DNA of 60,319 nucleotides, the filler included, from Hausera hauseri (Eukaryota): NCBI GenBank assembly GCA_046269625.1. It is 11 parts of 11 records of this genome, joined end to end, with 100 filler letters (N's around TTAATTAATTAA, not from the genome) between each part and the next. Parts side by side here need not be neighbours in the genome. Positions count along the whole stretch, not along the records: positions 35,059 to 39,151 come from JBJURY010766652.1; positions 39,252 to 43,460 come from JBJURY010699659.1; 9 more parts are not named here. One strand, 5' to 3'. The translations under genes were made by a program, and so were the position numbers. Below, piece by piece: positions 11,580 through 59,816 of this stretch (its first letter is position 1; every line of letters begins with the position of its first letter). The notes beneath the pieces are model-generated. The model was not told the origin of the DNA. It made no database searches and worked only from the letters and a program-made list of their open reading frames with translations.

Positions 11580-12110
11580 CGAAAACAAATCTTTGAAGTA
11601 GGAATCGATGATTGTGATAGCGTTGTTGAAGATATGTTTTTTGAGCGTGTAGTTTCTTTTCAATGGGGAACAGAACTAGGCCTTGCAGAAGGGCGTATAG
11701 TAGATAACAAACTTGGTTTTGTAGTTATCATGGTACTAATGGGCGACATGGGTACCAATGATGTTGAAATGACAATGGGACTGATTGTAATAGATAATGG
11801 ATTTGTACTGAAATTAACGTCTTTAGATGATTCAGTTAGATGCGTCGTATTTGATGGACGGGAGTGTCTAGTGTTATGCACAGTAGCCCATTTCGAGTAA
11901 TTTGATGCGGTAGCAAACGAAGACAAATTACTCACATGAAGAGGAGTAGTAAAATTACCACTAGATGCCACTTTTGTAGAATAAATCGCTGTAATATTAC
12001 GTATAGTCGTTTTATTTGATTTAAATGTTATAGATTCAGATGCCTTTTTCGAAGATATCAGAATATTAAAGTTGGTCGATTTTGAAGGCTCAGTTGAAAG
12101 TATTGCATTT
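11580..12110 (-). other. Ser/Thr-rich low-complexity coding segment fused in frame to the ZW10 fragment
   Basis: ORF 11660-12346 leaves ZW10 similarity after ..LFIKSL and continues as S/T-rich sequence, which carries on past the stop. Confidence 0.5.
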
Positions 12111-24232: not shown

Positions 24233-27200
24233 TTACATTAATGCAGCATGTCCATGAGGAAATGTGCTGATTCCGTCTTCAAGAATGTGTCTTTTGTCAT
24301 AAAACCAATTAAGACTTTTCTTCCACAGTGCAACCGTGGCAATCTGATATTCCCGGGACTGGATCCTCTTCATCTCGCTGACTATGTGATGTTGTTCCCG
24401 CAACACTCTCTCAAAATCTGCAAAGTTTATTTCTTTAGCTAATGTGGTCCTTGGCTCGCTTCTTTCCCTGACCACTTACATCGGTGGCGTATATTTTTAT
24501 CTCAACGCCACGAAACGGGTGATGATCTTCCCATTCACCTCATCTTTAAACTTCCCGAGGACCTTCTTGTTGGCGGTTGAATAATTTGGATGATCCTTCA
24601 GATAGTCCGAGTTATCCATATACTACGCCAATTTTGCAAACTTTTCAGAAACATCATATGTGTGGATCTGGTACATGAAACTGTCCGTGTCCATGCACAT
24701 TAGCTGGAGCTCCTTGAATGTGGAGACCATGATGTTGTAATAAATGTTATACATCAAGGTCTTGGATAGATCAAATATAGACATGCCCATATGTATAGGC
24801 ATGTTGAACTCAAGTGATGTCTTGAGCATGTGTATGCTCACCAAATTCTCCGTGTAGACTGTGATACTGTGGAAGTTGGGCTTAGCGATGAGTTTCTTTG
24901 CCCTCTTCCAGTCACATAACAGCTCGATGTTTATCCGGTTGCGGATGTTCTCCATAGTTTTGCCAAAGACCGAGTTGTTATACAGCTTGAATTGGTCTTT
25001 CTCAAACTCGTTCTTGGCATTGGCCGTCAACTGGGTATTGAAGTCTATGTATGGATTCAGCCATATGGGCTGGATGAACTACAAGTTCCGATGAATGCTA
25101 ATGACTGGCAGTCCATTTTTGATGGCCTGTTGGAGATTTATGTAGTGGGCTACATACCTCGCCCTATTTTCGAGGTGGCAGAGCAGCTTCTTATGCTTGC
25201 AATTAGGCGGTCTCTTGCTCTTCGGCAGAAAAGGCAGCTACTCATGCCTTGTGTGGATACTATGTGCGTATTCCACGTCCACTTGCAGTATGTAACTCGT
25301 ATTTCCATTGGGATCCATACCTTCAATATCCAGGACTTGCGGCTGCTCCATACATTGAAAGTTATCAGAGGGCAATGGGTTGCTCATTGCTTATCCATGC
25401 AAGTTTTTGGCGTCCAGGTATAAAATATCTGAGGATTCCTTGGATGGATCACAATCTGCCATCTATTTGTTCTTGGCCTCACTGTACCTAAGAATGACCT
25501 GGCAGATTCCGCCTCTAATGCCGCTCTCAACCATGAGGACCATATTGTAATCCTTCAAGATCTGGAGCCTTATGCCAGTATAGAGCAGCATCGCCGCCAA
25601 GCTCATTCCTGGAGCTGTAAAGAAATGGGCTGGATCTAACTTGTGGTTCTAAAGAGTCACATTACGGAAGTTTTCGAAGATATCTGTAAGCAACATCACG
25701 TTTGTGAGGAGATAGATATCACTATATTCCTCTATTGTCCTGCACTGGAAGGTCTGCCATATTCTTTGGGCGTGCTCATAGTCAGCATCTCCAATATGAC
25801 TGTATGACAACTGACTGTAGAAGTCCTCCTTGGCCGGTAATTCTTCTTCATCCAGTGCTTTCCATTACGTTATATAGTCATAGGGTAACACTCCTTTCCG
25901 GTTCACCAGGTCAAATGTATCCGGAAAGAACCTCTTCGCTTCCTTGAGCTCATCAGTGGGAAGGTTCTTCATGAGGCTGTCCAGTGACGAGCTCATGAAG
26001 CGGAACCTATCAACGAAGCGAAGTCTAATGCTGCCAACATGCTTTGTGAAGGTGATATACTTCTCCTCACTATTTGAAATCACATCAATGGTCCCCTCAA
26101 TATTGCCCAATTCTCGAACAATGAAGTGGGAATCGTAGCCAATAAGATTGTGGAATACCACTGGAACATATGTAAATGTTTTGCAGCGTAAGTCGGTATA
26201 TGCCTGTAAAATGGCAGTGATACCTGACTTTGTGATTTTCCCATGTGAATGGCCTTTGCATAAGTAGCATGTTGATGCTTTGCGACATTCACATTTTCTT
26301 GCTGCGATATCACCATGTAGCCCTTATGCTGTTGCAACATGTCTTCAAGTTTGTGGGCATACTGTTCCAAATGGTGCATAAAATGACCTGCTGCATTTAT
26401 ACCCATGTATAGGTAGGGTTCATTGTTCAGTCCTTTGTCATACATGTAGTACGATGAAAACTCATGTTACTCTCATGCTGTAGTACTGTTTTGCTGCAGA
26501 TTGAGGCTACAACTGTGAACTGGGCTAAGAATGGCCTCAAAGTCACAATATATGACAATTGGCACCTTCTGAATCTTCTCGAACTCCTTGAATTCCAGGT
26601 AAACCTCCTTGGGAATTCTGCTTGGATGCAATAGTTTGTATTGCAGTAAGTCTTGTGCTCCTCCAGCTTTTCTGCTGCTGTGTCTCCATTAAAATGGATA
26701 AAGCATCTTTGGCATATTTCTCACCTTGATTTATGCTGGGATATTTGGGATGCTACGAGGCCCTCAAAATTCTTGATCCATATGAAGTGCCTTCATTCTC
26801 CATTATATAGCAGGAGTATATCCCTATGATCCTCCAATTCCTACTTACCCACATGGCGGGGATAAAATTTGTCTTCCTCCAATCCGAAGATGTTGATGAA
26901 GATGTTGTTCACGCTTTCAAATTTCACGACTTCATCCAGGCTCGGCGGGAATAAAATACAGCTGAAGTCGTACGTGTGCTGTACTTTGTCATATATCCAA
27001 ACTCGGGAAGTATTATGTTGATCCTGGACTAGTTTTGACAAAATAGAATACATGAAGCACACTCTATCCTCATTATGGACATTGATGTATGCCTTTTTCT
27101 TAACTATCCATTCAGGAAGCTGTGTGTAGGAGCTGCCTCTCATGGGAGAATACTTGTGCACATGCATAAGTAACCCCTTTATTGTTGCTAAAGTCCAACA

Positions 27201-30929: not shown

Positions 30930-32870
30930 TTAAACTTTTTGAACAGTCAGATTTGGATAAATTGACCCAATATCTTTTGCTGGTAGCTCTCCCTTTTCTG
31001 CTTGTTCATATTTCTTTGCTTCCTTATGTTTGGTATGAAGGTCCTTTATTCGCTTCCACCATTTGAATTTCGTATTAAGACCTATGATGATTCCACACGT
31101 TGTAATTGCTGCTACAATAAACATGATACCCATGGCCTTCTTGTTATTTCTGTCATCCACTTCTTCGATTGCTTGGAATTTTTCCAATTCATTTAGCATC
31201 TCGTTATAGTTTATCTTTTCTATTGCCTTTAGATGAGTAGGAGGTTTCCCAAATGTAAACTTCATGTTCTTTACCACTGTTTCCGCTTCTAGGTTCTTCC
31301 ACAGTTGTCCATTAATATCGATGTTGAAAATATCAATCTTCGATGTCTCGACATTCACTCGCGAGTCAAAGGTCTGTGGTTCTGTAATGACCATTTCTTT
31401 CGAATATAGGGAGCATCCTGTTTCTAGGTGAAGTACTTCTAGTTTCTTTGTTAGGTGTACTGCTTCTGTCTCAAGTTTTCCTTCACATTCGCATAACTTC
31501 TGTGCTTTCAATTCTGTTTTAGTGACTATCGCCCATGTGCCTCTGCCAATCTTTGTTGCTTGTGGTATCTGCGTTCTCCTGAGTAATTCTTTCCGACACA
31601 GTTTCTCAGCTCTTTCTCTGTTGCCTTCGTACATGTTTAATATACACGATTCTGCTTGTTTCGTGGTGTACGTTGGTTGTGCAATTTCACAATATTCAGT
31701 GATTTCCTTGCGGCAGTTGTTGAATTCTTCCTGTTGTAGAATCGCATACATGGTGCCTGCTTTATTAATTAGTAGTGCTTTCCCTTCTGGAACATTTCTA
31801 ACATAGTAATTAGTCCACCACTCGTTCTGCTTCTCTTTTCCTTCGTCCTTTACTCTTCCAATACTGGTGACTTCGTATAATTCGTATTCTTCGTTGGTGT
31901 CAACTAATGGTATGTTCATCGTCATGATAATCTGACCTCTATTCACATAGGTTTCTGTTTCTAACTGCTCATAATAGTCAATCAGATGTTCGTCTATGTT
32001 AATCGGCATTCTAAGATTTGGTGGGATGTTTCTTTGAATACATTCTAAAATGGTTTTTAGTTCTATCGGGCTCATTACGTTGATGTTTAATCTCTTAAGA
32101 GTTGTGAGGCTTATGATGTCTTCGATGTTGTTTGCAATCCTTTCTGTTCTTCTTACTAACTCCTTACTTCTGTCTTCGACGGACATCAGCATCCCCAGCG
32201 TGTTTATCATAACTTCGAGTGTTTTAGTTATGTTTATTTACCTCCATTTCTTGCATATAATTTTCGATTCTAGTTATGTGGTTTGCGTGTTCGTTGATCT
32301 TTCTTCTGTTTTCGCCGATTTGTCTGTTCGATATGTTGATCGCCGATATACTATGCTCTACCACATGTTTCATAATTTCAACGTTACCGTTGATTATGTG
32401 GACGCTTTGCTTTATGTTTCATACTTCATCTTCTTTTGCTGTTCCAAATAGGGTGTCTAGGATATCCCATATAAATGGTAATATTGCTGGCTTCTCTTTT
32501 CTCCTACTGATTCAATTTAATCTCTCTTTTATACTTCGTATTTCGTCTTGCCACTGTCTTACTTCTATCTCTAACTCTAGCATCATACTCTGGAAATGTG
32601 TAGCATTTGTCGTCTTTTGATTTCTGTTGCTCGCGTATACCCTTGTGTGTAGCAGTCTTCTAGCTCTTCCTAATTTTTCTTCTACATCTATTATTTGTCT
32701 TTGGAAATTCGTCAGTGATTGCGTGATCACTAGTTTCCAGTGGGCTTTCACTTGGTGGATTTCTTTAACTTTTACAAATACTGTACCTTCATTGTGGAAA
32801 TTTCTTCCCTAGCCGGCGTCGAAATGACGAATATCCAGCTCGTAATGACTACTATCGACCGATAAGTGTT
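30930..32870 (-). pseudogene. env: Class I fusion (baculovirus F / errantivirus Env-like) envelope
   Basis: VFVKVKEI..AHWKLVI, decayed furin site RRKEK(P) followed by fusion peptide AILPFIWDILDTLFGTA, heptads, MSPIELKTIL..IQRNIP, IPLV..YELYEV, Cys-rich region, C-terminal TM and YPNL tail. Confidence 0.82.
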
Positions 32871-36353: not shown

Positions 36354-38861
36354 ATGTTAGATGATGCTTCTGCCGGAAATATGGGTCCGCCAATATCCAA
36401 GAAACGACGCGGTCGGCAGCCGAATCCAAATAATATCGTCAACGGAACAGGTATGAGTTAATTTAAATTTCCACGTAACAACGTAAATTGCCGTATTCAA
36501 TCTGGTAATACCGAAATCGTTTTAGATTCGGACAACAGTTTGTATGGTGTTATTCGATATGGCAAAGTGCCCATTCAGACAGTTGTTGATGACTGGATTG
36601 AACAATACAATCAGGATCGAGAGAGCGGCATTCTCGATTTGATGCAGTTTTTCATTTCCAGCTGCGGATGTAAAGGAAAAATCACATCTGATATATTCGC
36701 CCAAATGTCACAGGCTATTGTGATCAGGAAACTGACAGAGGAATTCGACGAGGACAATGGTGAATATCCGCTGATACAGTCGACCCCACAGGCCAAGCGA
36801 TTCAAGTCGAATTTCGTCGAGTTCATTCAAGTCCTTATACGCCAATGCCAGTACAGTATCATTTACGACCAGTACATGATCGATCAAGTAACGTCTCTGC
36901 TCACCGTTCTCACGGATTCCCAAGTCAGGGCGTTCCGACATACTGGAACATTGGCGTCAATGAAACTCATGACTGCTTTGGTCGATGTAGCTCTCAACAT
37001 AAGTATTAATCGGGACAATAATCAACGGCAATTGGAAGCGGAACGAAACCGAACTCAGCAAAGTCGATCGAAATCTGAAAGACTCCAGATTCTTTCTCGT
37101 CGACATCAGGAACTGGACGAGAACATGACGGAAGTTAAGAACATGCTAACATTCCTCGTTAAGGGGGTGTTCGTTCATCGGTATCGTGACAGTCAGGCGG
37201 AAATTCGCTGTATCTGTATGCAGGAAATCGGTGTTTGGATGCATCGGTTTCCGGAGATTTTCCTGGACGACAGTTATTTGAAATACGTCGGTTGGACGCT
37301 TTACGATCGAGTTGGCAGTGTTCGAGCACAATGTCTGAAAACTCTACAGCCATTGTACGAAGAACAGAGTCGTGTTGCGAAACTGGAGCTGTTCACGAAT
37401 CGTTTCAAGTCACGACTCGTCGACATGACTCTGGACAAAGAGCCGGAAGTTGCGGTGCTCGCGGTGAAAGTCGTCTCATGTATTCTGAAACACAACGAAT
37501 CATATCTGGAAGATAAGGACTGTGAAAACATATACGAATTGGTCTATTGCACGAATCGTAATCTGGCCCAGGCCGCGGGAGAATTCCTCAATCAAAAGCT
37601 GTTTCAAATTGATTCGAACGCGCCAATTACAAAATCCCGAAAGGGAAAGAAACGCAGTGAAAATACTCCACTGATTCGAGATTTAGTTCAATTTTTCATT
37701 GAATCCGAACTGCATGAACATGCCGGATATCTTGTGGATAGTTTGTGGGACGTCAGTCCTATGATAAAGGACTGGGAATGTATGATAGATTTGCTGCTGG
37801 AAGAACCTGGTAAAGGTGAACAGGCGCTGAATTCCACTCAAGAAAGCAGTTTAATTGAAATATTGTATTGGTGTATTCGACAAGCATCGACCGGTGACAG
37901 TCCGGTTGGCCGACAAAATACCACACACCATCATCAGACAATCCCGATGCCTAATGTTCCTGGCTCCAATGTCAAATCGAGCCGTGTTCTGTCAGCAAAA
38001 GAATTGAAGGCCATTGCCGATGATCGGAATAAATTAACGGAAATCTTAATTCCATCTTTACCGTCTCTTATAAGTAAATACGGTGAGGACATTACGAAAA
38101 TGACGAACATCGTTCAATTGCCGTTATTTATGAATCTGGATCTTTACACTAGCGGTAGACAGGAACGGTATTTGGATTTGTTATTGAAATATCTTCAAGA
38201 CCTCGTTGAACGGCATACCGATCAGGATTTACTATTGTATATATCTCAGGTGTTTAGTTCATTATGTGCTGACGAATTGGCTATATCAACAAAATGCCAA
38301 ACTGCCCTCGGGACTCTATTGGATCGACTTGTCGAATCTTATAAAAGATATTTCAATCAATATTACAGCTCACAAACCGACGAACCGAATCCGGATGATG
38401 CGTACTTGTTTAATTCGTCCATTAAACGGTTACGAGCATTCTATGCATGCCACGACTTACGATCCCTTGATATTTGGGAGAGCCTTATTCGTGTTAGCCA
38501 AAGTGCCCAAAACCAAGCAGTCTTCCACGAAGAAATCGTATCAAATGCGATCGTAACGTGTTTTTCCGCTCTTCTGTGGCAACTGGCATTTGAAGAACCG
38601 CAAAATCTCAGTCAAAAGGAAATCTCAACAATTTCGGCCAACATTCAAAAGTACGTGTCGTTGTGTCAGTCGTATTTGGATCACCATTCCAATTTGATTG
38701 CGGAAGAGAGTTTCAAAGGGATTTGTGATCTGCTGATCATTACGGCTAGGTCTATTGTTGACGAACAGCCAGAGTTGGAAGCGTTTATATTTTCTCCAGA
38801 TCTAGATCTACGGAATGCACTTATCCATTTCTTGGAACAGAGGGTGTTTATTGAGGATGAT
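36354..38861 (+). CDS. STAG1: Cohesin subunit SA/STAG (STAG1/2 family), partial; exons ~36354-36450 and 36526-38861
   Basis: VVDDWIEQY, FFISSCGCKG, EEFDED.GEYPL, LTDSQVRAFRHTGTLASMKLMTALV, GVFVHRYRD..EIRCICMQEIGVW, FFIESELHEHAGYLVDSLW. A 75-nt GT-AG intron (36451-36525) keeps the frame, and there is a GTAAGT donor at 38862. The first exon may start further upstream (~36271). STAG1 versus STAG2 cannot be resolved. Confidence 0.95.
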
Positions 38862-39459
38862 GTAAGTGTCAGTTTTTTATTTGAGTCATACGTAAAATTC
38901 CCTGATTGGCTATTATTGACAATATTATACACTCATTAAAGTTGCCTTTCTTATTAACATTAAATTATATGTTTATAGAAAATAACCACTGTCCCTCCCA
39001 ACGAACATGTTTTGCCTTTTATTTTATTCTCTTTTGAATTAGTATAATTGTAAAAATTAATGTCATAAACTAAAATAATGTCATAATTTATCCAACATTC
39101 GAATATTTCGATCATATTAAGATATTCGCCGGAGAGTTGACATTTAAACATNNNNNNNNNNNNNNNNNNNNNNNNNNNNNNNNNNNNNNNNNNNNTTAAT
39201 TAATTAANNNNNNNNNNNNNNNNNNNNNNNNNNNNNNNNNNNNNNNNNNNNAAAGAAATTGAATTTGCAGCAATTAAAATTGTCACCAGCGACTGCGGCA
39301 GCAGCTGCGTCGGTAACGCAGAAAAATCACAAAGGGAAAAAGTACTTAACGTTCCATTCCAAAATTCTAACCGATCAGTCATTGTGTCATTCGTCGGTTA
39401 TTTCCGATAATCAATTTAAAAAGCTCTCTTTCAATTCCAAATGTGTCTTAAGGCGGAAC

Positions 39460-40050
39460 GATCTCGCCGATAATTGAATTTGTTCGCTCTATAAACGAAG
39501 CGATGATTTGTCGGAAAACGGTACTGATCGTTTGTTTTGTTTTGACACGAACAGATGGCTCCATGTTAATTGAGCATTGTGGTGTAACAGTGTTTTTGAA
39601 AGGCAGTGCGGTACATTCAATAACGCTCCCGAATCATTTGAGTGCGCCGCAAAAAACATTTGTTCGTCGTGTGGCAAATCCCGTGAGGGTATAGTATGAT
39701 TTTATTCTCGATATACGTCGACATTCCATGTGCTTTGTCCCCTGGAGAAAAATTGCGTTTATTATACTGATAGAACTGTGTATTGTCCGGCACATTTATG
39801 TAAAGGTCACGGTTCGCCATCGAATTCGCTTACCGTTGATTACCGAGTGTATATCTCACGAGATGAATCTCAACAAGTCGCCTTAGTTATAAATGGCGAT
39901 GATCGTAGTTTTAATTTACGAATTGAATCACTTATTCTGTAGTTTATTGGCCAGCTGCTGCCACAACAGATTCATTCGGGTAATTACCATAATCTCAATT
40001 ACGTCTATTCCGTTGGTTATAAGTTCCAAAGAATCTATTGGTCATCTAGA
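39460..40050 (+). pseudogene. KMT2C: KMT2C/KMT2D (MLL3/4, Trr) ePHD plus FYRN fragment, intronless, with in-frame stops
   Basis: One frame reads GTDRLFCFDTNRWLHVN*ALWCNSVFE..CSSCGK..FHVLC..NCVYYTDRTVYCPAH..RVYISRDESQQVA..LRIESLIL*FIGQLLPQQ..VYSVGYKFQRIYWSSR. Confidence 0.9.
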
Positions 40051-40071
40051 TTAATCAAGCTTGGCATTAAC

Positions 40072-40524
40072 ATGGCTTGTGGGTTGTGCAGGGAGGTTAA
40101 AAATAATTTCCAGAAATTACGGAAAGTTAAAATTCCAGATTATCCATTTTTCCCTTGTATTGGTACCGATCCACGTCTGTTTAGGTTTTCCTATTCTGCA
40201 GTAATGGACCACAAAATTACTTCTGACGGGGACAAATATATACTTTACTTGAATCGTATTCAACCTTGTATTTTTATGAATGGTAAAGTCCGTACCGTTA
40301 AATTTCATTCTAAAAATCTTCACTTAAAATTTGGTGAAATAGTAATTCAGACACCATTAACCAGATTTTGCCTTATTAATTTCAACAACAAACCGTTTCA
40401 AATCAGTCTAGTTAGACCGGGACATATGTTCATAAACAATGAAATCATTTCAATTTGGTTTATCTTAAAAGCTAAGTTATTTGTCCAAATAATGCCCCAA
40501 ATTCCTTCACATATATATATATAA
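40072..40524 (+). pseudogene. Unknown host-like segment, possibly an invertebrate PCF11 beta-repeat region
   Basis: DPRLFRF..HKITSDGDKYILYLN..IFMNGKVRTVKF loosely resembles invertebrate Pcf11. It is in frame with the KMT2C/D fragment. Confidence 0.3.
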
Positions 40525-40739
40525 ATGGACAGCTGTTGAAAGAATTGAGTCTCTGAACTATCTGAAATTACACCCATTGACCCCTATGCGCTCATTTCAA
40601 TTGTTTCACAATCGAATATTACCGCTACAAAACGTGCAACACCATTTAAACAAGTGGACGTATTTACCGAATGTAAGCTATACCAAGTCAATAAAAACGG
40701 AATGCAAAGTTAACATTCCGATACTACGCGACTTGAGGG

Positions 40740-43460
40740 GAAATTCGGCCATCCCGCATTTTGCTGCCCGCCCGTCGAGGCGGAGGTCCCGGCCGCCAAC
40801 CCTGCTCCGGTCGGTCGGACGGCAGCTTCGGCGTCGGCCCCACATTACGCCCCCAGACGCACCACTGCTGCAACTTCTATTTTCTTTTTTTAGCAATATA
40901 CATATCTACACCCTCAATACAACACATCTGCACATTCCCATTTTTCAGACATGTATTTCTTCCTTGCTTGGTTCTCCCAACTTTTACCTCACTTAAAACG
41001 GCGCTATCATACATCTCAACGGAACTCTACCTCCTTTCTCAAATCACACTTGCTTCAACATACATCTCCGTATCCGTGGTGGCATGAACACTTCGCCAAC
41101 CATTGACACCACGGATACAATTACCACCACAAAAAAGGCAATACCCATTCTCTACTATACCAGACCAAATCATCCACCTACTTCAACCGACTCAAATTCT
41201 TCAAACAAAAATCCTATAAATACTTCTCTACATTGCACTGATTACTTTATAGATAATGAAAAGTCCAGCAAAACGTGGCTCCACTTTCATCAACTTTGAT
41301 TACAGTCCAACGGTATCACAGACTTTTTATCCAAAGCCCATAGCCTACTTTATCTTCTCCCAAACTCCATAAAGGCCTCAATCCATAATTTACTGGACAT
41401 CTTTCAACACCCCGACCCTTATACCCAATTGTTCGACGCTGTATTAAAACAGACAGAACCATCAATTGACTCCATAATGCAAAGCTTCTTTAACGAAAAC
41501 GCATTGGGGCACAAAACCCAGTGACTTCCTACACACCTCTTTGGTTCACTTACGTACTCTCGGCGTCACTAAGGAGCACAACCCAGATCTCTTGCGCCAC
41601 TATTTTCTTAATGCGCTACCTATCCAAATTCGGGCCCTACTTACCGTGGTAGAGGACTCCACGCCGCTTGACAGATTGGCCGAATTAGCCGATAAGATAT
41701 ACGATGTCCTACAAGTAAATTCTCCACCAGCCGTTTCAGCAGCAGTTGCCGCTAACGATAATACATCTATAGAATAACAACTTAATCAGCTACGTGCTGA
41801 AAACATTGCACTATATGCAACAATCAACAACATCAATAACAAATTGAACGAATTATCTCTGTCTCGCCGAGGGGGTTTTGCCTCTGACCGCGCTCGTTCT
41901 GCATCTAAAAACCATCATCATTGCCTGCGCGTTCGTCGATCAGCTATTACCACAGCAGATTTAACACTAATGCTCAGAATTACTGCCTAGGGTGCAAGTT
42001 TTATAATAAGAATTTTTCCTCGGACACCGTTATTTGCATCTACTACCCAAGATTCAAAAATCAAGCTGGTAAATGTCTTCCAGGCTGCACTTTCAAATCC
42101 AATACGAATGACGGACGTACTGCCTTTTCTTCTAATATTTGTCCTAATTCACTCTTTCAAAAAAACTAAATTCGCCGCCAGCAGTCACGGAAAACTCTGG
42201 CAAAGGCACTCCTTTACATTCAGAATGCCGACACGTCTCTTTTTCTGTCTTTACTCTAAAGGCTGCAATCACTGCTCCTACAACGCAATCTGTTCACTTT
42301 CTCATCGATACAGGTGCAGCGATTTCTCTCCTACCACAAACCTTTTCTACACAAAATACTCCATTCAATATCAAATTCTTATACACTGCTTCGGGCCAAC
42401 CGCTGCACATTTCTGGCATGGCTAAATTATCTTTCACTTTACAAAATTTCTCTACATCTTTCCTCTGGACCTTCGCAGTCGCTAACGTCCAGTCGGCAAT
42501 TCTAGGATCTGACTTTCTTTCACATTATAATTTACTGGTTGACTGCAGTCAGCGATGTTTGAGGAACAGCACCACTGGCGACATTTCTGAACATGTAAAT
42601 AGCATTTCGACTACCGCGCAGTCAACCGGAATGCGGAAGTCAATCTTAAAAAAGTCTACAAATGATTCGATTTTTTAAAACAATAATTCCATTCGTAAAT
42701 TTTTAAATAATAATACTGACATTCAATCGAAGTTCAATGTTGATAATTGTGGTACTGCCACCAACGCTAACTCATTCGACAAAAATACCTCAGCCAACAC
42801 CATTTTCAATTCAACCATCTTACACCAAATACCACTTGACTGCACATCACTAAACAACTCACACATTGCATCTGCTACTACTCAAGCCATTTCACAACCT
42901 TCACCAAATCTGTCACAGTTACCTACAACTTTACAACAGTTCGTCAACACATCTTGTCCACGCGTACTTAAAAAAGACCGTTCCTTTACTCCCGCAAACA
43001 GCACTTTACACCATATAGTCACAGCACCAACGTCCAATACGCCAAAAGGTACGGCCTCTGCCATCTCGTCATAGACAGGCCGTAGAAGCCGAATTACTAG
43101 AGCTAGAACATTCCGGTATAGTACGTCGTTCCCAATATCCTTGGTCATCACCGTTATACGTTGTACAAAAAAAGGACGGTACTTTTAAACCATGCGGTGA
43201 CTACCGACAGCTGAATAACTTGACTATCATGGACGCATATCCTTTACCACTCATCGAGGATATCCTGCATCGTCTTAATTCAACCACCATCTATTCAACC
43301 ATTGATCTAGCTAAAGCATACCACCAAATACCGGTGGCACCCGAAGACATTGAAAAAACCGCAGTAACAACTCCTTTTGGCCTCTATGACTATCTGTTTA
43401 TGCCATTCGGTTTGCCGAATGCCGCACAAACTTTTTAGCGGCACATAGATTCAATTCTTT
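40740..43460 (+). mobile_element. UBL-Gag Gypsy (CsRN1 clade) copy 2: UBL-gag, -1 frameshift, protease, RT
   Basis: GC-rich leader, UBL, gag (LLRHYFLNALPIQIRALL..LDRLAELADKIY), CHCC x2, A-AAA-AAC at 42160-42166, intact FLIDTGA in the -1 frame, RT (YPLPLIEDIL..IDLAKAYHQIPV..KTAVTTPFGLY..MPFGL). Confidence 0.92.
40868..41083 (+). other. Ubiquitin-like domain in frame with Gag (copy 2)
   Basis: LQLLFSF...NFYLT*NGAII...TCFNIHLRIRGG followed by ATG at 41084; 72 codons. Confidence 0.75.
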
Positions 43461-43692
43461 NNNNNNNNNNNNNNNNNNNNNNNNNNNNNNNNNNNNNNNN
43501 NNNNTTAATTAATTAANNNNNNNNNNNNNNNNNNNNNNNNNNNNNNNNNNNNNNNNNNNNTTTAAACTTTTCTATGACTATTGATATAACATAAAAATTG
43601 GTATTGTTGATTTGTAAACAATATGCAATATTGTGACACACACACAAACATAAACAAAAATGGGCATCAATAAGAGGATTATTTAAACAAAT

Positions 43693-44151: not shown

Positions 44152-45378
44152 CGTGGTGCGTTAATAAGTATCCGACCTGAGGATGAAAGCAATTTCAGGA
44201 ACACGTAATTTTTATTACACAAAAAGGCAAACATATGGAGAGATCATTTCTCAGCATAAGTCCCATCTTTCTTCACACACTTCTGCCAACGAGCAACCAA
44301 CTTATCAAACGCTACTTTGAAGAAGTCCGGAGGGTGATCATCAAAGAAAGTCTCCACAGCGTCCCTCAAGTCGTCGTTGGACTGAAAGTTTTTCCCTCGA
44401 AAATGTTTCTTTAGGTGTCTAAAGAGCCAAACATCGGTCGGTGCCAAATCTGGACTGTATGGCGGGTGATCCTCAAGCGTCAGTCCTGCAGCTTCAATTG
44501 TAGTCCGAGAAACACCTGCCGTTTGTACTGGCTCACTGCCTTGCATGAACCATAGTGGCGTGTTCCTTTGCTTTCTTCTTTTATGCCTGGTGGTTTCAGC
44601 GAGCTGATTTTGACGCCGTTATCCACAAAGTCCGTGTGGATGACGCCCTTTTGGTCCAGATCACGGAAAGCATCATCACCCGTCTATAGCTTGTCCTTGT
44701 CCGCATCTTCAAAGACAGCTAGTATATGCTAAATTTGGTTTCATCCTCCGTCATTAAATTTGCCAGTAAAGTATCTCCATGTTGTTCATAAAGAGCCAAG
44801 TTGTTTTGACAGATTTCCATTCGGTTTTGTATCATCTCACCAGAGAAGAAGTGGGGAACAAATCTAGAACATAGTTTTCTGATGCCAAGTGCATTCAGTT
44901 TTGCAGAGACTGTACCGAGGCTGATATTCAATCCGGTTGCCAGCGATCTTGTGGAGATTCGACGCTCTTCTTGCATGATTTTCTGCCATTTTTCATTCAC
45001 GGAGTTAAAAATTCTTCTCTGACGGCCTTCTCTTTCTTCATCAAATACCGAGGTGCGTCCACCTTTCAACTCTCTTACCCAATATTTTACAGTTGTTAGC
45101 GATGGGGCATCGCCCAGGTATGTCGACTGCAGAAGCTCAGATTTCGCTGCATGTTTTCTTCTGTAATATGAAAAACTTGATTACACTGCGGCATTCGATG
45201 TCTGAAATCATGACTAAGACGAAAATTCAAATTCCGCTGAAATATTTTTGCTACAGTGATAAAGTAAAACAAAACCAGTATTGAAAACCTAGACAGATAT
45301 AGGTGTTCTTGCAAAAAGTGTCAGGTCCTTAGCCACATTTTTTCCTTGTTAAGTCGGGTACTTATTGAACGCACCACA
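44152..45378 (-). mobile_element. Mariner (IS630/Tc1/mariner) transposon, near full length, decayed
   Basis: TIRs CGTGGTGCGTT(C)AATAAGTA(T/C)CCGAC at both ends and a TA site on the left. Transposase motifs GRTSVFDEEREGR, RKLCSRFVPH, MTEDET, HPPYSPDLAPTD. Confidence 0.93.
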
Positions 45379-50724: not shown

Positions 50725-51595
50725 CTTCTACTTCAGCCAACGCCCGCCAGTGGCCTTTCAGCCATCCGACGCCGTGCCGCCTAGTACAAACAGGCTCGTC
50801 CTTCTCTGGTTGCCTCGCAAGTGACGTCCTTAAGGCCATCGCAGGATAATAGATGTTCCGCTGTTCCTTCACTATTGAGGCATAGGGGGCATGCAGGTGA
50901 GTCTGCCAGCCCAATTCGGTATAAATGCTTTTGAAGGAAGTCGTGGCCAGTTGCCATTCGGAAAGTTGCCACTGTCACGTCTTTCGGTAGGTCGTTTGGT
51001 ACTCTTGAGTTGACTATGTCATTCCAGGGCTTGCCTTCTGCAGCTCTTCTGCGCGCTCTTTTAACAGTTTCATTGAAGATGTTGTTGATGCTGCGACAGG
51101 CACTGTGATAGGAGGTCGGGGGGGTCGGTTGCTCCATCGTGCATCCTTGTTTAACCACGTTGTTCGCCCTTTCATTTCCCCAGATGTCGCAGTGACCTGG
51201 AACCCATTGAAGTGAGATGTCTGTTCGATCTTGCAGCAATTCTAATTGTCTGTCTGTTCGTTCTTGTTGTAATCTAATCTGACATGTGTTTATTTCTTTT
51301 CCATCTTGGGGGCTTGATGAGCAGATTGCCTGTATTGCCGACACGGAGTCTGACAAGAAGACCACTTTCTTCAGGACAGGGAGTTTGAGCAGCTCTCTGG
51401 TGGCTTCACTGATGGTACACACTTCTCCGTCGAAATTTGTGCCATTTTTCCCTACGGCCAAGGCTCCCTCCACTACAGTCGAGTAGTAACCCGCACCACT
51501 CGCCTGAGACATGGCGGACCCGTCTGTATATAAGTGTGTCCAGTCTTCAGGAGGATATCTGCTGTTTACCCTTGCTATGGTGTGTGCCTTGAGTT
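50725..51595 (-). mobile_element. 5'-truncated RNase H-containing non-LTR retrotransposon (I/Nimb-like) 3' end
   Basis: YPPEDWTHLYTDGS, NFDGEV, VFLSDS, QWVPGHCDIWGNERAN, TGHDFLQKHLYRIGLADSPACPLC..EHLLSC, and a short GAA-like tail. Confidence 0.9.
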
Positions 51596-52408
51596 GAACA
51601 GTATAGAAAATGCTTACAGAACAACACAAAAATAAAGTGTCCACTCAGTGCAGCAGCATTTTTGACAAGATTTGGAACGGGATGACTTGAACTGGACAGT
51701 CACCAGAGACGAGACATGGGTGTCACATGCAATCCCTGAAACAAAACAACAATCCTTGAAGTGAAAGCACAACTCATTTCTAACTAAAACATTCAAGAAA
51801 TTGTATCATTTTATGCAGTAATAAAAACTAACTTTTGATGATTTCAATCATCTTCTTCAGCCTCGTTGATTACTGGGGCTGTACTCCCAGTATTCGATGA
51901 GGCTGAAAATGATTCCGATCATTGAAAGATCTCCCAATTATAGAGTATAAGTTTTTATTGCTACAGAAATATATATACAGTAATGTTACTGTGAAGTTTA
52001 CAGTCCATGGAATTCAAACAACTGTCTTTTAATCGCGTTAGACACTGAAAATATTTGGCTTCTAGTTTCCAAAGAAAAATAAAATCAACAGTAATATTAT
52101 GGAGTCGTACAAACGTTTATAAGTAAATTCCACACCTTAATTACATGGTATGTAAACATAGAAAAGTTTATGCTAGTCCGTAATATATTTGCTTTCGATT
52201 TTATTTGTGTCATACATGATGGACAAATATGTCAACAATTATAAAAATATCATTTTCATATTTGTAGTTTGACTGTTACTTAGTTACCATTTGTGAGTGC
52301 CTGTTACCNNNNNNNNNNNNNNNNNNNNNNNNNNNNNNNNNNNNNNNNNNNNTTAATTAATTAANNNNNNNNNNNNNNNNNNNNNNNNNNNNNNNNNNNN
52401 NNNNNNNN

Positions 52409-53190
52409 CCGAGCCCACAGAATATGCTTGCAAGTTGCGTTCGTGTCCTATCGATAATTTTGGTAACCTATCCACCATAAGTTTTGCACCGTTCGAATGT
52501 AACGTGAAACACAGTTCCAGAGAGTAGGAAGTCCCAGATGTATCTTTCGATACGACATTATTATGGCTTTATTTCAAAACACAGTTGTATAAAATTGATT
52601 TAAAACAAAATTCATTTGCTCACTTACCAACATTGCATATAGAAAAGGTCGGTATCACACATTTAGTTTTGATCTCTTGTCACAAATTGAAAAGTATCAC
52701 GCTGGAAAACTGTCCAGAACTGCAAGAGATTGTTATAAATTCGAGTACAGCACCACCATCGAAATCTATGGCAAATTGATGCGTATCAGAATAATGCGCT
52801 GTCCGACATTTACTATCTATAACTTTCTGTTTCTTGTCACACGGTTTTATCCACAACACGATGACATTCTTTACATTGCTTTCAGACCCTTTGGTAAATA
52901 CAATCCTCTCATTGAAAAAGCCCTTTGGCTCAATTCAGACAGTCAACATGTAATGGTGTCTCATGAATATCGGCAGGGATTATCCGAAAGAAACCTTAAA
53001 GAACTTTGTAATAGTAGTTTCGATCAGTTATTCAGAAAAATGCTAAAGTTCTCCGAATCACTGAAAAGGCGAGATATTTAGACAGTTAGGGACTTTTTGC
53101 ATGTCAATAGTTTTACTAACGGATCTTTCATGAGATCAGAACATGGTACCGATTGGGACCTCTTAACAGATATTCCCTGGATCAGTAAGG
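52409..53190 (+). pseudogene. FBXO38: FBXO38-like C-terminal fragment, intronless, decayed
   Basis: TLHIEKVGITHLVLISCHKLKSITLENCPELQEI, IAFRPFGKYNPLIEKALW..HVMVSHEY and WDLLTDIPWI parallel recalled FBXO38 blocks (..CGVSDLVLKDC.., IYLRPMQQ..LEQKLF..HICIIHEF, MISDFPWL). One frameshift and one TAG. Confidence 0.65.
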
Positions 53191-55822
53191 TCTGTTGCAC
53201 TATGCTGCCAAATGACTTAACACGAACACAACAGGCTGATCAGCTGTACGAACTGTTTTCTGAAATTCAATCACATATCGGGCACATGAAACTCCGTTGT
53301 CGGGGAATTCATTTTCACGTGCAACTCAGAGACGTTCACAAGCCGTCGATGAATGACACGAATAGTCAGATAAATAAAATAATCCCCAATGAATCTGATT
53401 TCTTTTACCCGCCTTTCTTTTATACTGATTCCCACATTAAATCAACATACCCTAGAACGGATTGTAACGCAAATTTTTGTCAACCAAATTTTTCAGATGT
53501 CTACCCAGAGCTTAATCAAGATCTTTTCGAATCCATTGACATTTTCAACAACTTTCATAAATCTCAGGACACTTCCTGTCTCCTCTTACACTTGAGAAAT
53601 CTGTTAAACGATAACCTAGATGACAGTTACGTACCGTACGCTTCCGACATCAACGAACGTATACTAATACCTCAGCAATTATCATCAGACAAACTGTTTA
53701 AGTCCACCACCAGCACTTCGTCAGCACCTCATCAACGTCAACAAACGTCGAGATCCGACACCGACAACGGCCGGATTCTGTCGACTCAGGCAGAATTCAT
53801 AGTACAGAAATCGGTCAAATTCAAATCTAATTTGCATGCCTTAAAGAAGTCCTCCAAATACATCAGCGTTAGTGAAATGACAGACTTAGCACATTCTGCT
53901 CGGGCCAAAACGGCTGAGTTGATTACACAGTTGGAAACGAGAAGTAACAGTAATAGTAACAACAGCAATAGTCAACATTTTAGGAACAAAAGGATACCCA
54001 GATATCAACGAACTCTGCCCCACGGTCCAATTACTATCGAATGACAATTACTAACGATTTAACAATTCACGCATTTACGATCGAATACATTCCATTGTAT
54101 GATCATGTAAAAAATATTGATCAACTGGCACAAACACTTGCCGACCCGATTTGCCGTCTTCTTGTTGATGAAATCTTTCATCCGCATCAATTGTTTAAAT
54201 ATCTGGCTAATAAGAAAATCTTGATGGGCACTGTGTTAACTATCCCACTAAAATTGTTTCAAATGGCCGGTAAAGCAGAAAAATTCCATTTACCTTTAGC
54301 CAATTCAGCTAACATGCCAAGTAGTATCCACAAAGTTAGTTTGAAACTATTCAACCCTTCTGCTCATAAAAACAGCGTTCCCATTCATATTCAGTCTACT
54401 TTTTCGAGCTTTAAAGCACTCAATATCCTGTCCATTCTCAGCGAAAACCTGCGTTCCCTTATTAAACCGAACTACTATTGTTTGAAGAATTCATTGCCAC
54501 ACAAGCCAAAAATCAGAAACGCGCCAAAAATCCAATATCTGATTTTAACTAATCAGATTGATGCTCTCAATTCAAGACTCCTGCATTGTCGAGACTGGAG
54601 TAACACGACAACGTTTGGAGCTTCTGTTCAATCAACAAACTCGATCGAATCCTTTTTTTAAAATCCGACAAAGCTAATCATCTCCAAGCTAGTAGTTAAC
54701 CATCGTTTAATCATTCTCTTGTCCAGTATTATGGCTAGTCCAAAAACAGAACGTCTTAAACTTCAATCGATATACCCATTACACGAGAATTTTGATTCAT
54801 GTATAAAAATGTTCGATTGCCTATCAAAATGCAAAATGGTTACTCGATGGAAAAATTGTATTAGCAAAAATGCTGTGGAGGCCCATCAGGATCTGGTCGT
54901 TCTTGTTGATCGACACAAAAGTCGTGCTGAGGACAACAAAAACGACCTTTTGCTATTGCGTAAGCATAAGAAGATGTATGCCCAATCTAGACCAATCGCC
55001 CGACGTCTTACATATTTTGATATGGTCGCAAATAAAACAGCACCTCAACTCTGTTTTTACGTTCCAGTATTGCTTTCCCACAAGAATAAGTTATTCGAAT
55101 GTGCAACGACCGCCGAATTAAAGCTATTCCTTATACGGGACTTCGGCAACTGTTCCTTTATAAACATTATACCGATTGACAGCAATTACTGTTAAATTCT
55201 TGTCAAACTCAATCTGTACAACAATTCCATTTCCTCTTTGTCTCGAAATCCCTTCCTACCAAATCCGATAAAGTTTAATCGCAGACAAAATCGATTTTTG
55301 ATTGTTCCGCTTTTGCAACGATTCTCAGAATCATATTCCGTTGAAATTGATGCCAATGTCTGTCATAAGCCTAACAGACACAGCCTAGCACATTTCTATT
55401 CGAAATTAATGTACATAAACGACAAAAAATTCGATAATCACGTTTCGGACGAATTGAACGTCATATTTGTCAATACTAAAACGCGTATTATATCTACGAA
55501 AGCCGCTCAGGCTTCAATTGCTACAATTTCCATTCTTCGACAACCCCAAAAAACTGGAGAATTTTCGACATTTTTGTCGATTGGATTTGTCATTGCCGAC
55601 AAATTAGCTATCCGATCATTGGACATCGACAATGAAACTACCGCCATATCGGTGCATGTAAGCTATCTTAATTACAATCCATTTTATAAATTCCGCCAAC
55701 AGCTTAAACATTTAGTTGATATGTCACGAAGTGATTATTACATGCATAGGATGACTTATCTTTACAGTATACAAAATTCATCTAAAGTTTTAACACCAGA
55801 AATGATTTTAAAATATTTCTAA
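53190..55822 (+). pseudogene. Long decayed ORF of unknown origin between the FBXO38-like fragment and UBL-Gag
   Basis: 52677-54044 is one frame with one stop, and 54041-55822 is one frame with only two internal stops. Confidence 0.6.
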
Positions 55823-55896
55823 TTTTAAAAACCCTTCATAGTCTGTTTATATCAGCGAGGATAAATGCTGTAGTAATCGATAAAAAAACAATATAG

Positions 55897-58800
55897 GTGG
55901 GCAGGTCGGTCACACCGCAATTTGGGCCCGCCGCGGCGAGGCTGGAGTCCCGGACGTCAACCTTGCGCCGGTCGGTCAGACGGTGCCTTTCGCTTCAGTC
56001 ACGCAGCACGCCTCCGAACACAACCTCTCCCCTATTCACCTTTCTTTTTCTAAATAATAAACACATACACGCATACATTACATTGCATTTACATAGTGCA
56101 ACTATTCGTAACTTCATTTCATTCTTACTTCACTCTTCCGATTTTTATCTTACACATAACGGATCTATAGTACCCCTCACTGGAACCCAACCATCTTTCT
56201 CAACCCATACTTGTCTTTACATACACTTCCGTACCAGTGGTGTCATGAACTCATCGCCAATTCTAAGCACCACGGATAAAACCACCACGAAACCAAAATC
56301 TGTTATATTGCTTCAAAAACCCACTCCTACACCCGCTAGCAACCTCTCACCTATTACCTCTTCTGCTCCTTTCCCTCACTGCACCGAATTCTTTATTGAC
56401 AACCAAGGCTCCAGCAAAACTTGGTTGCAATTCCATCAACTATGGCTATAGGCAAATGATATTACCGATTCTTTAACCAAGGCACACAATCTTTTCTTCT
56501 TACTTCCTAATAACATCAAAACACAAATTCACAACATTATCGAAATCTTTGAACTTCCTGACCCATATCTTCAACTCTTCAACGCCGTTCTTAAGATCAC
56601 AGAACCCTCCATGGACACGATCATACAACGTTTCTTCCACAACAATGCAATAGGCACGCAACGACCATCAGAATTTTTACGCACCTCTTTGGCACATCTA
56701 CATACCCTCGGCGTCAGTAAAGAACACAATCCAGACCTACTGCGCCACTATTTTCTCAATGCGTTACCTATCCAAATCCGGGCTTTACTTACCGTGGTGG
56801 AGTACTTCACGGCTCTTGAGAAATTGGCCGAATTAGCCGATAGGACATACAACGTTCTACACTTAAATTCCCCACCATTTGTTTCGGCAGCAGTTGCAGC
56901 TAACGATATTCAAACCAATAACACATCAATAGAACAACAGCTTAATCAGCAACGTGCTAAAAATATTGCACTACACGCAAAAGTCAACAATATTAATAAT
57001 AAATTAAACGAACTTTCTCTATCCCGCCGAGTGGATTTTGTCGCCGACCGCGTTCGTTCCACGTCTAGAAACCTCTCACCGTTGCCTGCGCGTTCGTCGA
57101 TCTGGTACTACCACAGCAGATTTAACACTAGTGCTCAGAAGTGCTGCCTAGGGTGCAAATTTTATAACAAGAGTTTTTCCTTGGACACCGTTGTTTGCAT
57201 CTACCACTGCTACAACGAAATCTGTTGATTTCCTCATTAATACAGGTGCAGCGGTTTTCTTATTACCACAAATCTTTCCTGTACAAAATTCTCCATTCAG
57301 AATTAAGCCCTTATACACCGCTTCAGGCCAACCGTTGCACATTTCTGGCATGGCTAAATTATCTTTCACTTTACCAAATTTCCCTTCACCTTTCCACTTG
57401 ACGTTGACAGTCGCTAAAGTCCATACGGCAATTCTAGGATCAGATTTTCTATCACATTATAATTTATTGGTTGACTGCAGTCAGCGATGTTTAAGAAACA
57501 GCACCACTGACGACATTTCTGGGCATGTCAATAGCATTTAGACTACCGGGCAGTCGACCGGTGCGCGGAGGTCAATCTGAAAAAATCAATGAATAATTCG
57601 AAATTTCATAACAATAATTCAATTCGTAAATTTTTAGATAATAATATTGATATTCGATTGCGGTGCGATATCGATAATTGTGGTACTGCCACCAACGTTA
57701 AATCATTCGACGAAATAACTTCACCCAACACCATTTTTAATTCGACCATCTTACACCAAATACCACTTGACTGCACATCACCAGATAACTCACACATGGC
57801 ATCCGCTACTACTCAAGCCGTTTCATCACTTCCACCGAATCTATCACAGTTACCTACAACTTTACATCAATTCGTCAACACATCATGTCCACGCGTACTT
57901 AAAAAATATCGTACGTTTACTCCCGAAAACAGTACTTTACACCATATATTTACACAGCATCAACGACCAATACGCCAAAAGGTACGACCTCTTTCACCTC
58001 GTCGTAGGCAGGCCGTAGAAGCCGAATTTCTTGAACTAGAACGTTCCGGCATAGTATGCCGTTCTAAATCTCCTTGGTCATCACCTTTACACGTTGTACA
58101 AAAAAGGACGGTACTTTTAGACCATGCGGTGATTACCGACAGCTAAACAACTTGACTATCATGGATGTGTACCCTTTACCACTCATTAAGGATATCTTGC
58201 ATCGTCTTAATTCAATCAATATTTATTCGACCATTGATTTAGCTAAAGCATACCATCAAATACCGGTTGCACCCGAAGACATAAAAAAAAACTGCTGTCA
58301 CTACTCCTTTTTATGTTTATGCCATTCGGTTTGCGGAATGCTGCACAAACTTTTCAGCAGCACATTGATTAAATTCTTGCAGTTTTTCCCTTTACACACC
58401 CTTATATCGATGATATCGTACTCGTTTCATCTTCGGCCAAAACAACACGCGGAACACTTTCGCGCAATATTCCAACGTTTTAACCACCATAATCTCCAAG
58501 TCAATTTCGACAAATGCCATTTCTTCAAAAAGGGCATTAACTTTTTAGGCAACATTATTTCACCAGACGGTTATTCTTCCCAACCAGACCGAGTCGAAGC
58601 TCTTAAAAATATCTAGTTGCCACGTACAACCACTGAAATGTGCAGCTTCCTTGGTATACTACACATTGTACATAAATATGTACCATATTGCTCAGAATTG
58701 ACAGCACCATTCGCACACCTAAGCGGCGGCAAAAAACACCAGCCAATCCAGTGGACACCTGAATTGGTTGACAAATTTGATAAGCTACGCGAAGGAATTA

Positions 58801-59070
58801 AGATCGTCGATATTCTCGCTTCCCACAAGCATGTCACAAAACTCCTCCTTACTGCAGACGCGTCAACCACTGCAGTAGGCGTTGTACTTCACCAGATCTA
58901 CAAGGGAGAAAATCAACTACTAAAATTTTTCTCTCGCAAGCTAACATGCCCTGAAACCAGATATTCAACGTTCGATTGAGAACTATTGGCCATCGTTCTC
59001 GCTTTAAAGCATTTCTCCCACCTACTTGTCGTTCGTCATTTTACTATACAAACCGATCACAAGCCCTTAC
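55897..59070 (+). mobile_element. UBL-Gag Gypsy (CsRN1 clade) copy 3: UBL-gag-protease-RT-RNase H, integrase absent
   Basis: UBL, gag, protease FLINTGA, RT (PYIDDI near 58400), RNase H (TADASTTAVGVVLHQ..FFSRKL..RYSTFD*ELLAI..TDHKPL). Confidence 0.92.
56032..56244 (+). other. Ubiquitin-like domain in frame with Gag (copy 3), di-Gly decayed
   Basis: LFTFLFLNNKHIHAYI..SATIRNFISFLL..DFYLTHNGSIV..TCLYIHFRTSGV|M. Codons cgt acc agt ggt gtc versus cgt atc cgt ggt ggc in copy 2. Confidence 0.65.
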
Positions 59071-59071
59071 T

Positions 59072-59274
59072 GTGGTGCCCACATTCATCCTATAGGACTC
59101 AAAATTATATAGTCATTTTTGTTTTGTTTAAATATTTCTATTGACTTTTTATTTTAAATAATTTTTAGTGAAATATAATACAATTGGTGGTTTTACTATA
59201 TTGCTGGACATTCTTTTTGTTGTTATGTATCTTAGCGCCTGCATACAATTAATAAATTCATAACCATTGCTACA
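59072..59274 (+). repeat. Possible short LTR
   Basis: TGTGG...CTACA ends and AATAAA at 59251. It begins exactly where RNase H is cut. No TSD seen. Confidence 0.3.
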
Positions 59275-59816
59275 ACTGTGGATTATTATATTCAGTATTA
59301 TAACAATTCGATTTGTAACTGTCTCATGTTTTATGAATCACAATTTCTATGATCGAATAATTCGATCGAATTCTTGAAGATCAATTTCTATGAAAAATAT
59401 CGAATCAACTGAAATAAAATGACCGATTTCCACATTGGTGTCAGAAGTGGGATACCAGAAACCGTTGTTTTTGAAGGTCCACACTACTTTCCATGTGTGC
59501 CTTTCTTCTTGGACCATTGTGACAATTCACTTACATGGACCGTGATCCATTATGGATGGTCGGCCAGCCTTTACATGAGTTCCATGGAGAAGGCTTTATC
59601 GTTTTTCTCTCTCCTTCCGGTCAATTTCCTACAATCCTTGAATGGAACTTCAGAAATTTCTTAAAAATAACAGATCCAATGATCAAACCGGAAAATATTT
59701 CGTCGTTGGAATTTCGTTGTCTGAATATTGCCGATGCGCAAGAGGCAGCCACTGTCAGTCGATAAACAGAGACAATTTCGTTTGCTAAAGAAAATACACC
59801 CAGTGAGGAGTACTAA

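Follow-up and report, generated by a model that had tools for sequence, protein, structure and literature searches.

Ty3/gypsy long terminal repeat (LTR) retrotransposons of the CsRn1 clade (CsRn1, PwRn1, AgCR, and Boudicca) have short first open reading frames (ORFs), from 756 to 984 bp in the table rows of the source (PMC2582038; this and the other papers are cited from excerpts). In LTR-mediated retroposition, partial host coding fragments are taken up in sense orientation, including two-gene mosaics, and are amplified further, and the capture replaces part of the ORFs of the element (Tan et al. 2016, PMC5131818). Marks of such retrocopies are flanking element sequence on either side, microsimilarity where the pieces join, and the loss of introns. 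In cytopathogenic pestiviruses, inserted host ubiquitin serves as a polyprotein processing signal that is cut by cellular hydrolases (PMC8310069). Animal gypsy elements with host-like domains include the planarian Burro elements (PMC6431247), in which Gag lies at the N-terminus with fixed extra domains behind it, and rotifer LTR elements (PMC5408684), in which the extra domains form an ORF3 after pol; the passages of these two papers that were searched hold no ubiquitin-like domain (UBL) before Gag. A different arrangement is found in a stretch of joined contigs from Hausera hauseri (GCA_046269625.1), 60,319 nucleotides long with filler included and referred to here as the window. It carries three related elements, and in the second of these (copy 2) a fragment of the host gene for the chromatin enzyme KMT2C/D stands upstream of a UBL and Gag.

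Copy 2 is a decayed Ty3/gypsy LTR retrotransposon of a CsRn1-related clade with a double CHCC knuckle. It resembles the CsRn1 clade in the CX2HX9CX3C (CHCC) Gag knuckle, the DUF7041-like capsid, the order protease-reverse transcriptase-RNase H-integrase (PR-RT-RH-IN), and the -1 gag-pol overlap (PMC2582038). Unlike in that clade, the knuckle is doubled, and Gag follows a stretch of variable host cargo, hundreds of codons long, and a UBL; the placement comes from a Gag tree of unnamed proteins. With the retrocopies of Tan et al. (PMC5131818) the family shares partial host coding fragments in sense orientation, mosaics of two genes, and further amplification. In contrast to those retrocopies, gag-pol is kept behind the cargo in copy 2 and in the relative L001, captures are repeatedly made at the same position, and a single reading frame runs from the cargo via the UBL into Gag. 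As in the pestivirus insertions (PMC8310069), a host-derived ubiquitin-type module lies within a polyprotein, with cleavage here predicted only; the pestivirus insertions are sporadic, recent, near-canonical ubiquitins in an RNA virus, whereas here a mostly diverged UBL stands lineage-wide before a retrotransposon capsid. Host-like domains in an animal gypsy element are also common to the Burro and rotifer elements. In the literature searched (mostly open-access text, including excerpts of PMC3597677 and PMC2774666, without supplements, Repbase, Dfam, or GyDB), no description was found of a UBL ahead of a gypsy Gag with in-frame host cargo. Gypsy elements, gene capture, and ubiquitin processing are each known; new is a CsRn1-type gypsy element with a ubiquitin-fusion precursor in front.

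The reading preferred here, with a probability of about 0.62, is that copy 2 is a decayed copy of an element whose relatives encode cargo, linker, UBL, and Gag in one protein, that the KMT2C/D fragment was captured and read in frame, that a host deubiquitinase frees Gag, and that the cargo is mainly a passenger. The copy 2 contig (JBJURY010699659.1) occupies positions 39252-43460. The window consists of 11 such contigs of 4-8 kb, and its ten gaps are runs of N with a stop-codon spacer (e.g., 39152-39251 and 43461-43560); since the contigs are unrelated and merely joined, neighbourhood across gaps is meaningless. From its 5' end, copy 2 consists of a KMT2C/D fragment (extended PHD, or ePHD, and FYRN), segments 2 and 3, a linker, the UBL ending in RIRGG, Gag, and pol. 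Its features and the extents of the two other copies are as follows.

39253-39480, plus strand: first part of the cargo frame, truncated where the contig begins, with a stop at 39475; nothing matched in Pfam or PDB
39481-40050, plus strand: KMT2C/D fragment, ePHD and partial FYRN, to RIYWSSR (KMT2D match, Pfam FYRN); stops at 39571, 39697, and 39940
40051-40521, plus strand: segment 2, 157 open codons in the KMT2 frame (stop depletion); many diverged sister copies
40511-40524, plus strand: (AT)n tract and stop, the frame break of copy 2 (sequence, and two sister contigs of other length)
40525-40737, plus strand: segment 3, open in the UBL-Gag frame (stop depletion); absent from window copies 1 and 3
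40738-40864, plus strand: GC-rich linker, open, at which similarity to copy 3 begins; codon-position differences 15/14/11
40865-41083, plus strand: UBL ending in RIRGG (relatives' profile 1e-5, predicted fold); stop at 40994
41084-42169, plus strand: decayed Gag with DUF7041-like capsid, both CHCC knuckles decayed, a stop at 41297, and frame breaks near 41510 and farther on
42148-43460, plus strand: pol in the -1 frame, decayed PR and RT (Pfam), cut by the contig end
9243-12589, minus strand: copy 1, with a ZW10 fragment, an S/T-rich stretch, the UBL (RIRGG), and the start of Gag in one frame, then the rest of Gag and the protease
52599-59070, plus strand: copy 3, with 3.2 kb of nearly open frames, linker, UBL without GG, Gag, and PR-RT-RNase H; the element at 55895-59070

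Copy 2 itself is dead, and its value lies in the family. Broken frames were translated with X at stops. The frame from 39253 aligns with human KMT2D over its residues 77 to ~266, corresponding to 39481-40050 (E 1.3e-31), and Pfam FYRN matches at model positions 2-44 of 60 (3.5e-8). The incomplete FYRN match ends at RIYWSSR, and the sequence after it is unrelated. Pfam and PDB searches with the cargo frame found neither SET nor FYRC, in agreement with an initial annotation of this DNA that recognised only the ePHD and part of FYRN, which it labelled the chromatin-reader part, and no SET domain. In the KMT2D alignment, the ePHD no longer has a zinc ligand at four or more of its ligand positions, two of which are stops and two more substituted. 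A genuine KMT2C/D gene was considered and rejected, the fragment being truncated and carrying stops in or just before it. The contig begins inside the cargo frame, with no ATG before 40072.

The KMT2 frame passes RIYWSSR into an ORF at 40072-40524 without a shift, and the stop of this ORF (40522-40524) ends the (AT)n tract (40511-40523). The adjacent frame is stop-free from 40493 to 40993 and leads to RIRGG, followed by M, and to Gag, with point stops at 40994 within the UBL and at 41297 within Gag. The initial annotation had described both frames in this way. Its further proposal, that one slip and reversal of the point stops would yield a continuous polyprotein, is sound as far as ~41510, where there is another break, with more later. 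Segment 2 has 0 stops in 157 codons (shuffle mean 11.2), the stretch 40526-40993 has 0 in 156 (shuffle mean 6.8; as low in 4 of 5,000 shuffles), and segment 3 has 0 in 71 (as low in 39 of 5,000). Chance origin of the cargo frame is rejected by the KMT2 match and this depletion of stops. Segment 2 had also been called a second host-like segment, a description that found no backing: no Pfam family matched beyond E 0.057, Atlas matches were weak (recognition 1,697), no homologue was present among longer or similar-length proteins (72 and 4 candidates), and the AlphaFold2 (AF2) model of the single sequence was unusable, with a predicted local distance difference test score (pLDDT) of 31.

Sister contigs were taken from one public run (X1, share 0.39), in which 7,577 contigs aligned at 80% likeness; 40 of 779 substitution rows were displayed, and three indel rows were hidden. 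The depths of the contigs add up to 22-36 across 39252-39533, 290-1,541 across 39534-40238, 115-260 across 40239-40520, 400-1,180 across 40521-40943, and thousands or more across gag-pol. The KMT2 part has 3-6 contigs at each listed site, with single diverged contigs at depths of 5-14, and this depth, which gives no copy number, is taken only as a sign that the KMT2 part is repeated. Sister contigs of segment 2 are ~85% alike. At the stops at 39697 and 39940, nearly all sister depth carries another, non-stop letter (among the rows displayed). The initial annotation had raised the question of whether another (AT)n length in sister copies restores the frame. Two sister contigs, matched across rows by equal depth, do differ in length at the tract, and their net differences keep the upstream frame in register with UBL-Gag, an outcome with a chance of one in three for each contig and seen with the three indel rows hidden. 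Both are shorter here than copy 2, so the tract looks lengthened in copy 2. The join between segment 3 and the linker is also present in two sister contigs, which differ there in length without loss of frame, and one contig appears, from its distance-to-end column, to span the junction of KMT2 and segment 2. Misassembly of the copy 2 contig alone is rejected, as sister contigs bridge both the tract and the joint between segment 3 and the linker.

The UBL was sought with a profile of the UBLs of 25 relatives, without the window sequence, run over all six frames of the window. The profile picked out only copy 1 (3e-7) and copy 2 (1e-5; 40886-41083), the next row standing at 0.28 and copy 3 being missed; with the two closest relatives taken out of the profile, copies 1 and 2 stood at 9e-7 and 1.4e-4. 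The AF2 model, made on a 29-row alignment and leaning on the relatives in it, has the beta-grasp order at a pLDDT of 84. Its structural neighbours are ubiquitin, ISG15, SUMO, and other UBLs (best Foldseek E 3e-3, probability 1.0), with a VIA Z of 8.8 and a root-mean-square deviation of 2.0-2.6 over 70-71 residues. Judged by the relatives' profile and the predicted fold, the UBL is real. Counted by codon position, copies 2 and 3 differ by 9/6/16 in the C-terminal half of the UBL, 14/17/19 in its N-terminal half, and 25/11/58 in the capsid; this comparison leaves out the 'pr' row and two copy 1 'gag2' rows, which are out of frame. The diglycine motif RIRGG is present in copies 1 and 2 and lost in copy 3. 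A continuous cargo-UBL-Gag polyprotein is well supported for copy 2 because the sister contigs are in register, two of the KMT2 stops are not shared, intact relatives are single proteins, and the UBL is real; it is very probable that copy 2 was once in frame from cargo through Gag.

Gag of copy 2 ends in KN-stop over an A-AAA-AAC heptamer (42160-42166), and its pol matches Pfam gag-asp_proteas (1.4e-3) and RVT_1 (4.5e-13), with PR preceding RT. The Ty3/gypsy order PR-RT-RH-IN is represented by PR-RT in copy 2, by RT-RNase H in copy 3, and through integrase in the relative L002. The CHCC knuckle retains its full motif in copy 1 and in the relatives and is decayed but in place in copies 2 and 3. 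In copy 1 the ZW10 fragment is recognised by Pfam (2.9e-5) and PDB (2.3e-4), and the ZW10-UBL-Gag frame has 6 stops in 529 codons versus 24 and 40 in the other frames and a shuffle mean of 30.8. Similarity between copies 2 and 3 begins at 40738, and upstream of the linker the three copies are unrelated. The leader of copy 3 (52599-55822, plus strand) spans two frames that together hold ~1,090 codons and just 3 internal stops; Pfam and Atlas searches with it gave nothing usable. Past its RNase H, copy 3 is interrupted by a nested LTR recognised by eye (59071-59453, plus strand; TGTGG...CCACA, ~364 bp), followed by a primer-site-like 18-mer.

Intact relatives were collected with a HMMER profile of the three copies, which retrieved 1,986 proteins at E<=0.001 (a word-indexed search with copy 3 gave 1 protein). 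The 20 relatives that were looked up all come from ENA, JGI, or Logan assemblies; viral contig scans gave no relative of the element. Among the best 150 of the 1,986, the capsid is preceded by 100 or more residues in 34, of which 27 have a ubiquitin-type GG just upstream of the capsid; the GG motif, a pattern of our own without a shuffle control, occurs in 29 of the 150 overall. Of 29 relatives, 24 have a residue other than Met directly after GG; copy 2 has Met there. Thirty proteins were chosen for long N-termini: 12 match Pfam ubiquitin at E<=0.05, 3 of them above the curated cut-off, and 7 have identified host cargo. The closest long relative, P0006, carries the DIS3L PIN-CSD1 region joined to CNOT1; the others carry H2A (P0013), STAG (P0023), 5'-nucleotidase (P0039), RING (P0133), Hsp90 (P0017), and Arp8 (P0018). 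The DNA of P0023 (L001) contains an uninterrupted 1,303-codon ORF, and the protease comes after it, shifted to the -1 frame. In L002 the UBL-Gag frame is open and pol is complete in the order PR-RT-RH-IN; the contig also has a purine tract and, near 5853, an LTR-like start of which it contains no second copy. It is practically certain that this family encodes cargo, linker, UBL with GG, and Gag as one protein.

Cargo is exchanged between close relatives. The Gags of P0020 and P0023 are 92% identical, with 28 differences in 371 positions; their leaders, with 483 differences in 647 positions, are unrelated. A quick Gag tree of 64 of the best 150 hits and three window pieces places the three window copies in one 38-row branch (SH-aLRT 99), of which 31 rows are UBL-labelled; the doubled CHCC knuckle is found in 29 of the 35 non-window rows of this branch versus 0 of 29 rows outside it. 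P0070, P0111, and P0133 form a separate three-row branch of single-knuckle DUF7041 Gags that also have a UBL with GG and leaders (RING in P0133), which is possibly a second origin or else an older trait. The UBL of P0046 is near-canonical ubiquitin (Pfam 3.7e-23, LRLRGG) amid neighbours with diverged UBLs, which suggests a fresh replacement from host ubiquitin. Short tandem repeats keep the leader frame open in L002 (1-350, 105-bp unit) and P0020 (~450-600).

In the mechanism proposed, host mRNA would be packaged in the particle and captured into the 5' leader by RT template switching (cf. Tan et al. 2016, PMC5131818). As Gag mostly lacks a start of its own after GG, a capture could propagate only if the frame read from a start farther upstream ran through it without a stop, so the leader would have to stay open. 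A cut at GG would give the same Gag N-terminus whatever lies upstream, and the leader would then be a free slot with exchangeable content, in line with the swapping seen in relatives. Since most relatives have no Met after GG, a host deubiquitinase likely releases Gag, as with the pestivirus ubiquitin insertions, and the retention of GG while the next residue varies is the pattern expected of a cut site; from this analogy and pattern, cleavage at GG is probable. Pol would be reached by -1 frameshifting, the frame relation being present in L001, L002, and copy 2. Copy 2 would have decayed later, by point stops and the length change at the (AT)n tract. That the cargo travels with the element is highly likely; that it is mostly a passenger is somewhat favoured.

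Several observations weigh against this reading, including the dependence of the UBL model on the relatives' alignment. Taken alone, the window UBL has no sequence match in Pfam or PDB. The GC-rich linker has no coding signature (differences of 15/14/11 by codon position) and shows no protein-level constraint. Examined as a possible RNA element, it matched nothing in Rfam at the gathering score, with one chance-level row only and a two-sequence fold too thin to judge; an apparent likeness of segment 3 to the P0006 linker is not significant (60 of 1,000 shuffles as high). Contig depth is not copy number, and the view of the sister contigs comes from 40 of 779 substitution rows. Within copy 1, the 108 codons before the linker (11336-11659) hold 4 stops and are not significantly stop-poor when taken alone (P 0.18). 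Copy 3 has a stop directly before the linker and an upstream ORF in another frame, has lost GG, and is missed by the UBL profile; continuity is not supported by this copy. The DNA check covered just one relative whose cargo has identified host homology, and the others are protein predictions from an unspecified gene-caller. Near-identical pairs have common cargo and may be alleles rather than transposed copies. In three such pairs cargo differs at 24 of 1,071 positions and UBL plus Gag at 21 of 1,160 (p 0.55); as the cargo does not diverge faster, the term passenger is unproven. None of the cargoes has a visible 5' LTR, primer site, or target duplication upstream of it, the contigs being too short and ending inside the element. 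The CsRn1 clade is marked by a tRNA-Trp primer-binding site and a 4-bp target duplication; the primer site had no match within 2 substitutions in the three copies or L001-L003, and may lie off-contig. The 1.4 kb after pol in L002 match neither L001, nor the 5' part of L002, nor any hit protein, and give no sign of cargo inside an LTR, although the LTR may be longer than this stretch.

The same architecture would acquire another meaning if the cargo-UBL proteins were selected as dominant-negative decoys against silencing chromatin or RNA-decay factors. Several cargoes do belong to chromatin or RNA turnover (KMT2C/D, H2A, STAG, Arp8, DIS3L, and CNOT1), their frames are open over hundreds of codons, cargo divergence is not above that of Gag in close pairs, and captured fragments come from network hubs according to Abrusan et al. 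(PMC3597677). However, the fragments break mid-domain, as in FYRN, elements whose Gags are 92% identical carry different cargo, the cargoes also include ZW10, 5'-nucleotidase, and stretches without assignment, and one of two H2A copies has a 5-residue in-frame deletion within the fold. The list of cargoes is moreover biased, since conserved housekeeping genes are the easiest to recognise. Selected decoys are unlikely, and the decoy role once suggested for the KMT2C/D fragment itself is unsupported: relatives carry cargo from genes that have nothing to do with one another, and close elements exchange it, and the ePHD has here lost zinc ligands. Doubtful, too, is a combined reading in which a host-cleaved UBL serves a broad lineage of animal gypsy elements as an adaptor for any cargo, with the Gag N-terminus as a capture slot, and in which some released cargo-UBL proteins (KMT2C/D ePHD-FYRN, H2A, DIS3L-CNOT1, STAG, Arp8, Hsp90) are in addition selected decoys against chromatin or RNA-decay control; the design, shared by the single-knuckle branch, has perhaps arisen more than once.

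Other explanations separate the upstream frame from the element. In a gene trap, the element would start at the linker and insert into host genes or pseudogenes, the cargo would be flanking DNA that supplies a promoter and start codon, and the UBL would free Gag from whatever host N-terminus precedes it. The abrupt start of copy 2/copy 3 likeness at 40738, the lack of a visible LTR, and the cargoes that start at the N-terminus of the host protein (H2A, DIS3L, Arp8) fit such an insertion, yet P0006 holds two unrelated host genes in one frame, and the KMT2 piece is a C-terminal internal fragment followed by ~230 unrelated codons. In addition, the KMT2 part and segments 2 and 3 each occur in several diverged or deep contigs of run X1, and the purine tract and LTR-like start at the end of L002 have no counterpart near the linker. 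Alternatively, UBL-Gag would be translated alone, from a non-AUG start or after splicing near the linker, or the UBL would be an uncleaved degradation or regulatory tag, with the upstream frame never joined to Gag. The uninterrupted ORF of L001, the sister length variants that keep the frame, and the GG kept in 27 of 34 long relatives with a variable next residue all speak against separate translation, for which one can cite the linker without a coding signature, the stop before the linker in copies 1 and 3, the Met after GG in copy 2, and a pyrimidine tract with AG at ~40878-40893 in copy 2 only. Both the gene trap and independent initiation of UBL-Gag are less likely than a captured cargo read through into Gag, and each is improbable.

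In animal LTR elements, gene capture has mostly been known as a sporadic and disabling event. With cargo captured ahead of a cleavable UBL, it would instead be a built-in design in which the genes of the element are kept whole and chimeric host fragments are made routinely. Such a design predicts a retrotransposon that depends on a host deubiquitinase for capsid maturation. Because many independent cargoes sit on the same backbone, the family would permit a direct test of whether cargo is a passenger or a counter-silencing tool.

Other features of the window lie on other contigs. On the neighbouring contig, an uninterrupted 825-codon ORF (36462-38939, plus strand) encodes an animal-type cohesin STAG, with 759 bits to the human protein versus 70-83 to those of yeasts; it points to long-exon animal genes, if the contigs share a source. 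An uninterrupted 1,286-codon ORF at 1054-4914 (minus strand) matches SZT2 (E 2e-28). Envelope-like ORFs of other retroelements are found on the minus strand at 30930-32237 (Pfam Baculo_F, 1.3e-8) and 7855-9141 (Monjiviricetes_fusion, 1.3e-16). Fragments of a DNA_pol_B_2 element, a DDE transposase, and a non-LTR RNase H lie at 25865-26323, 44244-44618, and 50781-51644, respectively, all on the minus strand.

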